Source of the DNA: Candidatus Latescibacterota bacterium
Lineage (GTDB): Bacteria > Latescibacterota > UBA2968 > UBA8231
Reading direction: 5' to 3'
DNA: 64,000 nt
NCBI GenBank assembly: GCA_965208105.1
Contig: OZ242318.1
Location: 2,912,001-2,976,000, forward strand
The position numbers and the translations under genes were made by a program. How positions within the stretch are numbered: the first letter of the stretch is position 1; the number at the start of each line of letters is the position of its first letter. Positions 9,963 through 37,534 of this stretch are shown one piece after another. Below the pieces are notes generated by a model, which saw only the letters and a program-made list of their open reading frames with translations, searched no databases and was not told the DNA's origin.

Positions 9963-11396
9963 CTATGGCGATTCACCAGAGACAGGCTGGACCAGGGGCG
10001 GCCTGTGTGCCGACCAGGGCGCCAGGTCCTCGAACGCGGCGGCTGCGCGCAGCACCGTCAAATCGTCGCGCCAGCGTCCTGCGATCTGCAACCCTACCGG
10101 GAGGCCGCTCCTGGAAAATCCACAGGGAACCGTAGCCGCCGGCTGTCCGGTGACGTTGAAGGGATAGGTAAACTTGGTCCAGCCGAGATATGTGGTGGGT
10201 TGTCCACAAATCTCGGCTGGATGGTCGTCACCGGACGAAAAAGATGTCATGGGAAGAGTTGGGGTCAAAAACAGGTCGTATTTCTGCATAAAAATTCGCC
10301 ACCCCTCGTAGTAGTCGTTTCGACCTGCATACGCGGCGGCCAATTCCGCTGCAGAATAGGCATGCCCCTCTTCGATAACCGCCACGAGACCGGGGTCGAG
10401 GAGGTCGCGAACCTCATCGAAATCGCGAAGGTGAGCCCCTGCAAACGCGGAGGACCAGACCACGCGTACAATTGAATCCCAAGGATCCTCTAGATCGGGG
10501 TGGTCCTCCTCGACCCTACAGCCAAGTTCGTCGAACCGAGCCGCCGCCGCCGCTGCGATCTGGAGCACTTCGGCGTCTACTGGAGCATAACCCAGGTCGG
10601 CAGACCAGGCTACCCGCAGATTTCCGGCCCAACTCTTCAGATCTGCGCCGAAATCAGGACTCGAGGGCAAGGAGATGCGGTCGCGCGGGTCCGCCCCTGC
10701 CATGACGTCGAGAAAAAGGGCAGCATCCCGGACCGTGCGGGCGATAGGCCCCACATGGGAAAACTGCTCCACCAGGCTGGGCGGGTACTGGGGAACGAGA
10801 CCCCAGGACGGCTTCAACCCGAAAACGCCGCAGAAGGAGGACGGAATTCGAACGGAGCCGGCACCGTCAGTTCCCTGAGCCAGAGGACCCATTCCCGCGG
10901 CCACAGCCGCGGCGGCCCCGCCACTCGACCCACCAGCAGTACATCCATGTTTCCAGGGATTGTGGGTAGGCCCTGATACGCGGTTCCCGGAGTCCCCCTT
11001 CCATCCCCGTTCAGGAGTATTGGTCTTGCCCAATAATACCATACCCGCAGCATGGAGACGCTCGACAATGGGCGCGTCAAATTCTGGTACCCAGTCCCTG
11101 GAGAGCAGGGACCCTCGCGTGGTGCGGATGCCCTTGGTCGGAGTGAGATCCTTCAGAGAGACGGGTATGCCAGCCAGTTGGGGCGGGTTCTCTGTATTTC
11201 CGTAGGTCAATTCAGCGGCGCGGGCTTGCTTGAGGGCAATTTCCGGTGTAACCGTGACAAAGGCGTTGATGTTTGGATCGATTTGGTCTATGCGGCTCAA
11301 CACCGCCTTGGTCACTTCGACCGGCGATACCTCGCGGCGCTGGTAAAGTTTCCGTAAATCCCGGGCCGAAAGATAGCATAAATCAAGCGCGTCCAT
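9963..11396 (-). CDS. Amidase (GatA/amidase-signature family)
   Basis: KDL, GKTNTPE, GGSSGG, GTDGAGSVRIP; likely start MDALDL at 11396 (the longer ORF runs into the IS). Confidence 0.9.
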   Translation of the reverse strand: MDALDLCYLSARDLRKLYQRREVSPVEVTKAVLSRIDQIDPNINAFVTVTPEIALKQARAAELTYGNTENPPQLAGIPVSLKDLTPTKGIRTTRGSLLSRDWVPEFDAPIVERLHAAGMVLLGKTNTPERGWKGDSGNRVSGPTHNPWKHGCTAGGSSGGAAAAVAAGMGPLAQGTDGAGSVRIPSSFCGVFGLKPSWGLVPQYPPSLVEQFSHVGPIARTVRDAALFLDVMAGADPRDRISLPSSPDFGADLKSWAGNLRVAWSADLGYAPVDAEVLQIAAAAAARFDELGCRVEEDHPDLEDPWDSIVRVVWSSAFAGAHLRDFDEVRDLLDPGLVAVIEEGHAYSAAELAAAYAGRNDYYEGWRIFMQKYDLFLTPTLPMTSFSSGDDHPAEICGQPTTYLGWTKFTYPFNVTGQPAATVPCGFSRSGLPVGLQIAGRWRDDLTVLRAAAAFEDLAPWSAHRPPLVQPVSGESP

Positions 11397-11532
11397 GTTC
11401 AAAACCGGCTCTATCCTAGACCTTATGTATTGACGGAGATATGAAAGACCTCCTCCGACTCGGTTGTCGGGGGTTATCTTTGGGAAAACGGAGTTCACCC
11501 AAAGACCTATCCCCAGCGAGAAGGAGGGGGCC

Positions 11533-12671
11533 ATGCGTAAATCTACGAAATTCGTCGCCTTGGACATAAATAAAGATTTGATAACCGTTGCGCTTAACTG
11601 CGAGGACCTCCAAGGGCCGGACCTGTATGGAACGATACCGTCTACGGGCGCCGCGTTGTCCAAGCTGGCGGGCCAACTGGCCAGCCCGGAGACGTCGTTG
11701 CGGTTTTGCTACGAGGACGTACCCTGCGGCTACGGCGTCTACCGTCAGCTCCAGACCCTGGGGCACGCCTGCACGGTGGTGGCGCCCTCGCTGATTCCGC
11801 GGCGGCCGGGCGACCGCATCAAAACCGACCGGCGCGATGCGCGGTCTCTGGTGCGGTTTTTCCAACACGGAGAGTTGACCCCCGTGTGGGTGCCCGACGA
11901 AGCGCAGGAGGCGATGCGTGACCTGGAGCGCTGCCGGGAAGACTTCAAGCACGCCGAGCGCCGCGTGCGCCAGCGGCTGAACAGCTTCTTGCAGCGCCAC
12001 GGCCGGATCTACTCCGGGCGCAGTCGCTGGACCCAAGCCCACTTTCGCTGGCTGGAGACCCAGCGCTTCGATCATCCGGCCCAGCAGATCGTCTTTCAGG
12101 AATACGTGGACGCGGTACAGGAAGCCCAAAGTCGGATCCAGGGGTTGGACCAGGCGCTGCAGCAGGCGCTGGAGGGATGGTCTTTGGAAGGGGAGACGCG
12201 GGCTATGAGGGCACTGCGCGGGGTAGACACACTCACCGCGGTTAGACCCTGGCCGAGTTGGGGGACCTCACCCGCTTCGACTCTCCGCGCCAACTGATGG
12301 CCTTCGTCGGTCTGGTCCCCAGCAAGCATTCCAGCGGCTCCCGGCAGCAGCGAGGGGCGATCACCAAGGCGGGCAACGCCCACGTGCGGCGCGTGCTGGT
12401 GGAAGCCGCCTGGTGCTATCGATTTCCCGCCCGCAAGACGGCCGCCTTGCAACGACGCGCCGAACAGACCGCACCCGCCATACAGGCCATCGCCTGGAAG
12501 GCACAGAAATGCCTGTGTGGACGCTATCGGCGGCTGAGTGGGCGAGGGATGCCGAAGAACAAAGTCTGCACCGCGATCAGGTGGGAGCTTTTGGGTTTCA
12601 TCTGGGCCATCGCCTGGAAGCAGAAACGCCCCGGCCGCCTCGTGGCCAGGAGACCTCGGATCGCCGCCTGA
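11533..12671 (+). pseudogene. IS110-family DEDD transposase/recombinase, frameshifted near 12240-12260
   Basis: VALDINK, CYE and KTDRRDA in ORF 11464..12297; GDLTRFDSPRQLMAFVGLVPSKHSSG and GAITKAGN continue in ORF 12258..12671; AAGGAGG RBS before ATG 11533. Confidence 0.9.
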
Positions 12672-12719
12672 TAAGCTCATCGTCTCAGAAGCCGGCATAG
12701 GACCTTTGCTCATGTAAAT

Positions 12720-12895
12720 CGAAACGGGACAGAAGGGACCGGTCAGGAGAATCCTCGAAGACACTATGAGGCGCCTTTTCAGGCTGACCCTCGACCATAG
12801 ACTGAGGCCGCTCCGCGACGCACCCAGGACAGGCGGTAGCCAACCCGCGAATATCAGTCGGATCAACCGTCGCTACAGCGTCCCTTCTGTTGCCG
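12720..12895 (+). ncRNA. Putative bridge/seek RNA of the IS110 element
   Basis: Closing stem ACAGAAGGGAC (12729-12739)/GTCCCTTCTGT (12880-12890); internal loops contain GACACTA (complement of the target) and ATATCAG (identical to the donor end). Confidence 0.65.
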
Positions 12896-12965
12896 AACAA
12901 ACTCATGCAAAGATAACACCCGAAATGACCACCCCGGAGGGGGTTGACAACCGTCAATACATATC

Positions 12966-13131
12966 AGTGTCCCGTCGCAGAGATAGGTTGACGAAATTGG
13001 GCCGCCGAGGCGCCAGGCTCACAAGGCCCCTGAGCGAGTCGTACCAGTGGTGTACGGCGAGTGAAGGCAACGCCGTGAGCCGGGATGGATCGGCGGGAAA
13101 ATGGCGACATATTTCTGCGACGGGACACTAG
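12966..13131. repeat. ~165-bp MITE-like element with terminal inverted repeats
   Basis: AGTGTCCCGTCGCAGAGATA (12966-12985) vs TATTTCTGCGACGGGACACT (13110-13129), 19/20 inverted match; CTAG at the right end, also restored at the left end when the IS is removed. Confidence 0.7.
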
Positions 13132-13245
13132 ATCGGGGTTATGGATCGGGGCAAATGGCACCTGATAATGACCTGGCAGGGGAAGGCAAAGCCTTTCCAA
13201 TTCCTGGGCCCGACTCACCGAAGGGCCACATCCGGTCACCGGTGT

Positions 13246-13860
13246 CTAACGAACAAAGACCTCGAAATCGTAGAAGCGGTTCACCCCTTCGCATCCCGTG
13301 ATACCAGCGTACCTCGCTCGAGGAAGCGTCTCCAACCAGCATCCTGTTTCGCGGTCTCCCACCCGCATCCTCAATTCTCGGCCCTTGCGCTCTACTTCGA
13401 GCACGTGCCGCGTCTTTGGTCTCAGCTCAAACCGCGAATAGGCCGCCCTGACCCAGACCGGCCTTCCTTGCAGGTAGACATGGCGCCAGAGGTTTATCCC
13501 CTGGTCGAAGATGACAACCTCGAAGTGTTCGCGGTACTCGAGCCTCCCCTTGGGGTCGACACCCGGCTCAGCGGCCAGAACGACAAGCGGAGCCATGCGG
13601 TAGTCGAAAGAAGTGGTGACCCGCACGACCACATCCTCGGGCAATTCTTCCCGGCAGAGCATGCTGGCATAAGTTTCGGGTGCGCGCGAGCCGGTGGAAA
13701 TCAGATCCTCAGGACCGGCATCCTTCGGAACCTGGTTGCAGATATGGTCGTCTTGTTGTTCCCAAGACCCCATCCAATCCCAACGCGCACTCTTGACAAG
13801 CATCCAGTCATTCGGGTGCCAGCCTCCGGGAGCAAAGCTGCAGGCTTGGAGGATCCGCAT
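13246..13860 (-). CDS. Hypothetical protein, possible ConA/LamG-like beta-sandwich
   Basis: 204-aa ORF co-oriented with neighbours; beta-rich, ends YAGITGCEGVNRFYDF. Confidence 0.55.
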   Translation of the reverse strand: MRILQACSFAPGGWHPNDWMLVKSARWDWMGSWEQQDDHICNQVPKDAGPEDLISTGSRAPETYASMLCREELPEDVVVRVTTSFDYRMAPLVVLAAEPGVDPKGRLEYREHFEVVIFDQGINLWRHVYLQGRPVWVRAAYSRFELRPKTRHVLEVERKGRELRMRVGDRETGCWLETLPRARYAGITGCEGVNRFYDFEVFVR

Positions 13861-35917: not shown

Positions 35918-37077
35918 GTGAATCTGGATATCTTTGGTATAATTCCCTTTTCGAAAGTAGGGACTGAAATGAGGTCTGTAGAGAGGAAGTCGGTAAGAAA
36001 ACGATTGAGGGTTTTAAAGCTGGCAGAGAGATTGGGCAACGTTTCCGAAGCGTGCAGGCGCGGGGGCATAAGCCGCACCCGGTTTTACGAGTATAAGAGG
36101 CGCTATCAAATCCACAGCCTGAATGGTCTGGTGGACCGGCCACCCATCCACAAGTCTCACCCTCAAACCACCCCGCCTGAAGTGGTCCGGAAGATCCTGG
36201 ACCTGGCCTTGGCGCATCCTGCCCACGGCTGCCATCGACTGTCCAAGCTTCTCCAATCAAATGGTGTGTCGGTTTCGGGAATTACCATCCGGAAGATTTT
36301 GCACAGGCAGGGGATGGGCGCCCGGCAAGAGCGTCTGCTCAAGCTGGAGAACATCACTGGTGCGCAGGACATGCTGAGCCCGGAGCAGATGGCGGCCATG
36401 GAGAAGGGCAATCCCTGCTTTCGGGAACGGCATGGGGAAAGCGTGTCCCCGGCTGAGTTGTTGTGTCAGAACACCTTTACATGGGTACCTCCCGCCACAT
36501 CGGCCCGGTCTACCTGCAAGCCGTTGTGGATACCTATGGAAGCATTGCCTTCGGGTATCTGCACACCGGCAAATCTCCCGAGCATGCCGTGACCATTCTG
36601 CACCAGCACGTGCTGCCTTTTTACTTGGCCTGGGGTCTGGAGGTGGAGGCTATTCTGACCCATAACGGCGGGATGTATTGTGGGCACCCATCCCACCCTT
36701 TTGAAAACTATCTCAGCCTCAACAACATCGACCACCGTAAAACGAAGGTGGGAAGTCCCAAGCCTCATGGCTTTGTGGAGCGGTTCCACCGTACGGTGAT
36801 GAACGAATTCTTTCGCACGGCCAGCTTCCCGGTGACCTACAAGCAGGTGCTCGACCTGCAGAAGGAGTTGGACGGGTGGGTCGAGCGACACAATTTCGAG
36901 CGGCCTCATAAAGGCTATCGAAATTGGGGCAAGCTACCGGTTGACACGGTCATTCCGTTCAGTAAACCGGTTTGGGAAATGCCTGGGGGTGGAAATCCTG
37001 TGAGGATCTTGCCATTAGGGTTTTTGATCGAAATGTTGAACAGAACAAGACGCAAGTGGCCAAGGACAACGCTATAA
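35918..37077 (+). mobile_element. IS481-family transposase, frameshifted (two ORFs)
   Basis: LKLAERLGNVSEACRRGGISRTRFYEYKRRY HTH; VYLQAVVDTY, ILTHNG, HGFVERFHRT and RPHKGY integrase core in the second frame. Confidence 0.85.
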
Positions 37078-37307: not shown

Positions 37308-37534
37308 CAGCCGCCCAGCCGTACAGTGAGATACTTGGACCTTGAGACCAAGCCCCCCTCAGAGGGTCGAGCGCGGTGCCTCGCTGTCCCAATGGTGTTA
37401 CCAGCACCATAGGACGGCGACACAGAATAGACGGTTTCCGTGTCGCAAGGTTCAAATTTCAGGGACAGTTCCGCGTCAATTCGGAGGAGGTCTTTCATAT
37501 ACCCCTCAATACATAAAGTCTAGCCCAATATTTC

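Follow-up and report, generated by a model that had tools for sequence, protein, structure and literature searches.

Introduction

RNA guidance of IS110 and IS1111 insertion sequences (ISs) was published in 2024 (PMC11187229, PMC11208160). The IS1111 group, as PMC11187229 outlines it, has subterminal inverted repeats (sTIRs) of about 11-13 bp, a left extension of 7 bp and a right one of 3 bp, a long downstream non-coding region (NCR) and a transposase of 330-350 amino acids (aa). According to PMC5896051, 20 of the 21 copies of IS1111 in Coxiella burnetii lie in a MITE (miniature inverted-repeat transposable element), QMITE2. Here we describe an element of the same architecture in a stretch of 64,000 nt from a Candidatus Latescibacterota bacterium (assembly GCA_965208105.1, contig OZ242318.1, positions 2,912,001 to 2,976,000, forward strand); this whole stretch is called the window, and positions refer to it unless the genome contig is named. 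The element, at 11418-12967, is very probably a decayed copy of an RNA-guided IS1111-type IS with a guide RNA that matches a MITE tip.

Boundaries of the element and its genomic copies

The element and the MITE beside it have the following parts (a caret in the sequences below marks a junction).

11418-12967, plus strand: IS110-family (IS1111-type) IS, drawn with the AG core at both ends, boundaries from 12 genomic copies
11416-11419, plus strand: left half of the target, C, then TA (the flanking TA of the MITE), then G; the AG core at 11418-11419 is common to target and element
11425-11436, plus strand: left sTIR ATGTATTGACGG, preceded by the 7-bp extension AGACCTT
12951-12962, plus strand: right sTIR CCGTCAATACAT; next to it the 3-bp extension ATC, then AG of the core at 12966-12967
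12967-13128, no strand assigned: 162-bp MITE (GTGTCCCGTCGCAGA...TCTGCGACGGGACAC), with TA-G next at 13129-13131 and the other TA left of the IS at 11417-11418

Counting one copy of the core, the IS is 1548 bp long (about 1.55 kb). Its two sTIRs are perfect over 12 bp, and the ATGTATTGACC-type subterminal repeat is kept in relatives of the IS, as are the 7-bp left and 3-bp right extensions that result when the core is assigned to the left end. The non-coding DNA is distributed unevenly, with 296 nt 3′ of the transposase gene (12672-12967) versus 115 nt 5′ of it. By its sequence, the window element is a member of the IS110 family with IS1111 architecture.

The left flank ends in TATCCT followed by AG (11418-11419), and the right end reads ATATC-AG (12963-12967) followed by TGTCCCG. 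Only the 2-bp core is common to the two junctions, and none of the 12 genomic copies has a conventional target duplication. A preliminary description of this locus had proposed excision at the shared AG, and rejoining the flanks there indeed gives CTAG-TGTCCCG, which is the sequence of unoccupied MITE ends. The same description placed the 12-bp repeats 10 nt apart in a circular form; the predicted circle would have exactly this spacing (ATC+AG+ACCTT), although the coordinates that it implied were off by one base. It also preferred AG to TATC as the core. The left flanks of the 11 other copies are unrelated to one another and alike only in the CT before AG, which rules out TATC and agrees with that choice.

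The genome searched for copies is a single 4.85-Mb contig. It contains 12 copies, 11 of them full-length and one with an in-frame 120-bp deletion, and every copy is found at CT^AG...ATATC-AG^TG. With no other similarity among the left flanks, both the element boundaries and the 2-bp core AG are fixed. The preliminary description had raised the question of whether other copies sit in MITE ends, and this was the case: at 10 of the 12 the right flank is GTGTCCCGTnGCAGA, the terminal inverted repeat (TIR) of the 162-bp MITE, with three copies at one MITE end and seven at the other. The right end of the IS always faces the TIR, whichever MITE end is used. Since both ends are used in the same orientation, it is the TIR-tip sequence that is recognized and not the whole MITE. 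The remaining two copies lie at CTAG^TGTT, which forms the tip of another TIR element, 117 bp long, and at CTAG^TGGT. An uninterrupted transposase frame is present in 10 of the 12 copies, and six encode proteins that are 100% identical, which suggests recent activity of the IS family. The window copy is the most divergent, at 95-96% identity to the others.

The MITE as a landing site

We asked how target sites are supplied in this genome. The MITE is short (162 bp) and non-coding, with TIRs of at least 15 bp and about 90 near-full genomic copies, about 80 of which are without the IS. Most copies are flanked as CTA^G...C^TAG, such that free ends read C-TA-GTGTCCC, and CTAGTGTCCCG occurs 65 times in the genome. 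CTAG is strongly avoided, with 1649 sites. Perfect CTAGTGTC sites number 87, compared with approximately 11.5 CTAG+TGTC sites expected by chance, and because CTAG is so rare the MITE termini supply 74 of these 87. Of the 84 perfect MITE ends, 10 are occupied (about 12%) and 74 are free. Where an end is occupied, the TA stands on the far side of the IS, and since the TA pair of the MITE is thus split by the IS, the IS came after the MITE. The MITE is, in effect, the landing pad of the element.

Duplication of TA is typical of IS630 elements. The genome has a resident IS630-family (DDE_3) element of 1162 bp in nine copies (for example, genome contig 1133588-1134749), with ends CTAGTGCTCTG... flanked by CTAG in the same manner as the MITE. 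The sequence that it has in common with the MITE end is limited to CTAGTG. We considered it as the autonomous partner of the MITE and rejected it, as its TIRs differ; a search of the genome for an autonomous partner gave no convincing TIR pair at IS-like spacing. None of the 18 ends of the resident DDE_3 element carries an IS110-type insertion. Two of its copies adjoin a MITE copy, with the CTAG in common.

A conserved RNA structure in the 3′ non-coding region

The following features were mapped in the NCR downstream of the transposase gene.

12725-12895, plus strand: predicted seekRNA/bridge RNA core, from the consensus structure, ends approximate
12729-12739, plus strand: 5′ arm of the closing stem, ACAGAAGGGAC (helix 1)
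12758-12766, plus strand: 5′ strand of the target loop, AAGACACTA (right-target guide), complement of top strand T-AG-TGTC(TT), covarying with right flanks
12794-12802, plus strand: 3′ strand of the target loop, ACCAT-AG-AC (left-target guide), in the same sense as left flank and core
12825-12830, plus strand: 5′ strand of the donor loop, CAGGAC, candidate left-end guide (GACCTT), complementary at 4 of 6 positions
12851-12857, plus strand: 3′ strand of the donor loop, ATATCAG, identical to right end and core
12880-12890, plus strand: 3′ arm of the closing stem, GTCCCTTCTGT (helix 1)

From 233 transposase matches in complete genomes, 80 relatives were taken for analysis. The NCR alignment covers 75 loci, consisting of three copies from this genome and 72 relatives from many phyla with transposases 57-85% identical. 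A consensus fold of the 52 distinct sequences has 36 pairs in seven helices, and 21 of the pairs show changes on both sides. In this fold 94.8% of cells are paired versus 37-47% when the partners are slid by 1-3 columns, and none of 500 shuffles reached any of five measures. The scaffold consists of the closing stem, a GGAG/CUCC helix, a CCUCG/UGAGG helix that bounds a hairpin-capped first loop and a CGACG/CGUCG helix that bounds a second region. An 11-bp closing stem had been noted in the single sequence, and in the relatives seven of seven pairs of this helix have compensatory changes.

We next consider the first loop. The reverse complement of AAGACACTA is T-AG-TGTC-TT and the target is T-AG-TGTC-CC. 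Within this strand, GACACTA is located at 12760-12766 in a loop bounded by CCTCG and TGAGG, as the preliminary description had it. On the opposite strand of the loop it had pointed to CCATAG. This motif is present at 12795-12800, but it is carried by a minority, copies c1 and c2, and mismatches its own site at -2; eight of the 12 copies carry CTCTAG (ACTCT-AG-AT), and CCCTAG is found in two.

If the loop reads the target, guide positions should change with the flanks, and both strands of the loop do so across homologues. On the right of the core, the 40 distinct right-target guides agree with the flank at 170 of 240 positions versus 68.9 ± 7.3 after shuffling, and 0 of 10,000 shuffles reached the observed value. 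This test used one representative per distinct guide and left aside L044, L045, L061, L068, L082 and L085, where the region is misaligned, and loci with less than 8 nt of flank. Among the 33 distinct left-target guides, agreement with the left flank was seen in 33 at position -1, in 28 at -2 and in 24 at -3, again with 0 of 10,000 shuffles reaching this; L068, L082-L086 and loci without a left flank were dropped. Positions -4 and -5 match in 10 and 7 of the 33, and because matches fall off there the clade reads about 3 nt, AG and then 4-6 nt. Since the loops change with the flanks in relatives, the match between loop and target is functional and not accidental, and it is this covariation, rather than the 7-mer match alone, that excludes chance. 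Together with the 10 of 12 copies at the MITE TIR, guide covariation supports the earlier proposal that the element is RNA-guided and programmed to a MITE terminus.

The second loop relates to the ends of the element itself. ATATCAG at 12851-12857 was correctly recognized beforehand as the donor end plus core, and this strand of the donor loop equals the right end in 69 of 73 loci. Loop and right end have changed together in two lineages, to ATAACAG in L032 and to ATACCAG in L042, L048 and L094. The preliminary description did not mention CAGGAC at 12825-12830. For the left-end donor guide, 88 of 120 positions match versus 77.0 ± 2.6 after shuffling, which 3 of 10,000 shuffles reached (20 distinct pairs of guide and left end). 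Durrant et al. note that the donor-binding bases of IS1111 members are often in a multi-loop and not in a simple internal loop. Separately, positions 12829 and 12858 (alignment columns 121 and 151) covary as an RNA pair, U-A in 38 sequences and A-U in the seven of this clade; 12858 comes directly behind the core in the 3′ strand of the donor loop, and 12829 is its partner in the 5′ strand. In this clade neither position matches the left end of the element (A after AG), suggesting that selection acts on them as an RNA-RNA pair and that they do not read DNA.

The transposase gene is frameshifted in the window copy

The transposase gene of the window copy is in two parts.

11533-12244, plus strand: N-terminal DEDD/RuvC-like part (PF01548, DEDD_Tnp_IS110, E 2.5e-10)
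12244-12245, plus strand: site of a 1-bp deletion; 11 other copies have a C between these bases, and its loss splits the open reading frame (ORF) into 11533-12297 and 12258-12671
12245-12671, plus strand: C-terminal part (PF02371, Transposase_20, E 5.6e-17), in the +1 frame relative to the first part, with the stop at 12669-12671

Against NCBIfam NF033542, 'IS110 family RNA-guided transposase' (cut-off 140), a sister copy with an intact frame reaches 263 bits. The C-terminal motif of the IS110 family, defined in PMC11187229 as GL-P----S(t)G, is GLVPSEHSSG in the intact copy and GLVPSKHSSG in the window copy. Intact copies encode a transposase of 379 aa from the ATG, above the 330-350 aa given for the IS1111 group. 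The frameshift had been noticed in the window sequence, and comparison traces it to the one C after 12244, which is absent in the window copy and present in each of the 11 others. We compared contigs from four of 24 sequencing runs (X1, X2, X15 and X16, of which X15 and X16 are from RNA libraries), and the C is also present in contigs from three of the four. As its frame reads, the window copy cannot make the transposase. Its ends and RNA scaffold are intact, which means that it could at most be moved in trans.

Proposed mechanism and alternative explanations

We propose that a DEDD recombinase would move this IS family by RNA-guided site-specific recombination, with a structured seekRNA/bridge RNA encoded in the 3′ NCR. 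The first internal loop would read the target on both strands, AAGACACTA pairing with top strand T-AG-TGTC and the 3′ strand of the loop (yCT-AG) pairing with the bottom strand of left flank and core. The second loop would read the joined ends of the element, using ATATCAG for the right end and core and, less surely, CAGGAC for the left end. The IS would then come to lie between the flanking TA and the TIR of the 162-bp IS630-like MITE through recombination at the shared AG. We infer that the RNA would be made and bound by the transposase, with a circular intermediate and strand exchange at AG. One further sequence may belong to this cycle.

12944-12949, plus strand: TTGACA, just inside the right sTIR; TTGAC(A) is kept in nearly all relatives in the alignment

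This sequence is a candidate -35 box for a promoter that the joining of the ends in a circle would complete, an idea taken from PMC11187229. In this clade two extra bases lengthen the spacing of the candidate junction promoter.

Several observations weigh against this account. Two of the 12 copies occupy imperfect sites (CTAG^TGTT and CTAG^TGGT), and the left guide of the window copy, CAT^AG, differs from its own site, CCT^AG, at -2 (A versus C). This mismatch may reflect decay, tolerance of one mismatch or mobilization by the RNA of another copy. In four of 73 loci donor loop and right end disagree, and the left-end donor guide CAGGAC, which matches at only 4 of 6 positions and has weak covariation, is no more than suggestive. 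The shuffles do not preserve phylogenetic relatedness, with identical guides collapsed. An Rfam scan of 11300-13300 at E<=1 matched no family. Contigs from the RNA libraries span 12384-12849 and 12675-12776, although DNA may be present in libraries of this kind. A joint of right end to left end was not among the contigs of the four runs, nor was a clean empty-site joint at the window locus, and both results are uninformative either way. The RNA and the circle are argued from the published mechanism of the family. Finally, 0 of 13 perfect non-MITE sites are occupied where about 1.6 would be expected; the difference is not significant, and it hints that more than the nine guided bases may matter.

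The last point bears on an explanation in which the transposase protein alone recognizes the MITE TIR as DNA and the NCR matches are coincidental or regulatory. The 15-bp TIR far exceeds the roughly nine guided bases, and the contrast between the unoccupied non-MITE CTAGTGTC sites and the 10 of 84 occupied MITE ends speaks for it. However, the loop positions follow the flanks on both strands in relatives with unrelated targets and transposases 57-85% identical, two copies lie at non-MITE or other-repeat sites that are alike only in CTAG-TG(T), and reprogramming of IS1111-type seekRNA has been published (PMC11187229). We consider recognition by protein alone very improbable. It is hardly credible that the MITE inserted beside a pre-existing IS or that the two move as a composite unit, an arrangement that would account for their adjacency in 10 of 12 copies. 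About 80 MITE copies have no IS, two IS copies are without this MITE and the IS is found at either MITE end (three and seven copies); in addition, the TA pair of the MITE is complete only after removal of the IS, and the left flanks are unrelated among IS copies.

A further question is whether the window copy, though non-autonomous, is still mobile, with transposase and RNA supplied in trans by the 10 open-frame copies. Its sTIRs, extensions, core and RNA scaffold are all intact, and copy c2 has the same odd left guide with an open frame. Against mobility, the window copy is approximately 4% diverged from the others, and a 7.2-kb contig of run X2 shows it at a single fixed position, which suggests an old, resident insertion, and there is no evidence that it has moved. 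Movement in trans is unlikely. We conclude that the window most probably holds a decayed member of an RNA-guided family that is programmed to the MITE tip.

Other traces of the IS family and the neighboring gene

On the minus strand at 37481-37521 the window contains a solo left-end fragment of the same IS family, about 41 bp long and 90% identical, with CT^AG before it. It is cut off beside a transposase ORF at 36463-37077 of rve type (IS3/IS481-like, by motif only) and looks like the relic of a further IS copy. An nhmmer search of the genome with the RNA alignment returned the 12 copies and two fragments (genome contig 4001318-4001391, minus strand, and 3931331-3931434) and no free-standing RNA gene. 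The fragment at 4001318-4001391 adjoins a MITE whose opposite end is occupied by copy c4; both ends of this MITE were apparently hit, and one IS copy was truncated afterwards. Run X2 has one contig with a matching 190-nt skip (12775 to 12966).

The MITE and IS lie about 21 nt upstream of the start codon of a divergent minus-strand ORF that begins at 11396 (window 11394-11417). We presume from a GGSSGG motif that its product is amidase-like, and the insertion may affect its promoter.

Relatives at the tips of other TIR elements

Of 65 relatives' loci, 13 from nine assemblies have a TIR-element tip as their right flank, as judged by an inverted copy of the flank downstream; by our own estimate, the chance of an inverted 15-mer within about 1.1 kb is approximately 0.001 per locus. 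Eleven of these elements are 65-163 bp long, one is 444 bp and one is 1178 bp. In all 13 cases TAG follows the far TIR, that is, the element is TA-flanked. The 1178-bp element encodes helix-turn-helix (HTH) and DDE_3 domains and is an IS630-family IS. A tblastn search of the relatives' right flanks with two DDE_3 proteins matched only L019, where the gene is adjacent, and L043, where it lies beyond the MITE on the opposite strand. With so few matches, the link to IS630 rests on the TA-flanked TIR elements and one autonomous case.

Among the relatives, L043-L046, L025, L031, L034, L042, L055, L065 and L079 target near-identical CTAG^GAG(C/G/T)CTGTCGGA(C/T)TT tips of MITEs of about 160 bp. Their hosts belong to different classes (Gammaproteobacteria, Desulfobulbaceae, Halomonas and others), implying that this MITE family and its IS partner are widely spread as a pair.

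The clade as a whole extends over at least five phyla and is characterized by transposases of about 360-380 aa, by the sTIR ATGTATTGACC and by the donor ATATC-AG-ACATC. We tentatively suggest that the whole clade may be specialized on the junction between TA duplication and TIR tip of IS630/Tc1-mariner-type elements and their MITEs. In such a case, the near-invariant T-AG would read the TA plus the first TIR base, and the variable 4-6 nt would be re-programmed between IS630-type families. If true, this would be a lineage of RNA-guided transposons living on the ends of other transposons.

Comparison with known systems

The window IS adds another example to the known RNA-guided IS1111-type systems, and the mechanism itself is not new. 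IS4321 and IS5075 are reportedly IS1111-family elements with sTIRs that insert in one orientation in the TIR of another transposable element. Their target is said to be the 38-bp inverted repeat (IR) of Tn3-family elements on enterobacterial plasmids, whereas the present IS, in an uncultured marine bacterium, targets an IS630-like MITE. The novelty is modest, since both the mechanism and the targeting of repeats, MITEs and TIRs have already been published. What may be new is that relatives in at least nine other assemblies sit at the TA-flanked ends of small TIR elements, including one IS630-family IS. We found no statement in the literature that an IS1111-type clade targets IS630-type termini, and the supplementary target lists of PMC11187229 and PMC11208160 may include members of the clade; relatives that are 56% identical occur in Azospirillum, and Azospirillum elements are possibly already in those lists.

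What the present family offers is a guide, target and donor code that is readable straight from the genome, with about 40 naturally re-programmed relatives as a check by covariation. The guide map of the clade (3 nt left, AG core, 4-6 nt right) could help annotation and the choice of orthologues for engineering. The MITE ends in a genome that avoids CTAG also provide an example of how an RNA-guided element finds a safe landing site.

The protein similarity to IS621 is local only (E 2e-5 over residues 223-293). The core of IS621 is, we assume, CT, compared with AG in this element. As in the IS621 bridge RNA (PMC11208160; PDB 8wt6), the RNA predicted here has target and donor loops that would each read both strands around a core dinucleotide; unlike it, the RNA is not in the left end, and the order of the loop strands is reversed relative to that described for IS621 (PMC11208160).

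The seekRNAs of ISEc11, ISKpn4 and ISPa11 (PMC11187229), as described there, are likewise encoded in the 3′ NCR with the top-strand complement 5′ of the bottom-strand match, the two matches overlap at the insertion point, and natural retargeting is found among relatives. They differ in that their transposases are about 340 aa, compared with 379 aa here, and in their targets, and the RNA of the window element is predicted from sequence. With IS1111 of Coxiella (PMC5896051) our element has in common the architectural group, of which IS1111 is the founding member, and the use of a MITE as landing site. The Coxiella target, in contrast, is an internal GTAG palindrome of the MITE, similar to a repetitive extragenic palindrome (REP), and PMC5896051 proposed no guide RNA reading for IS1111 and QMITE2. 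The element described here instead uses the junction of TA and TIR tip, at both ends of its MITE.

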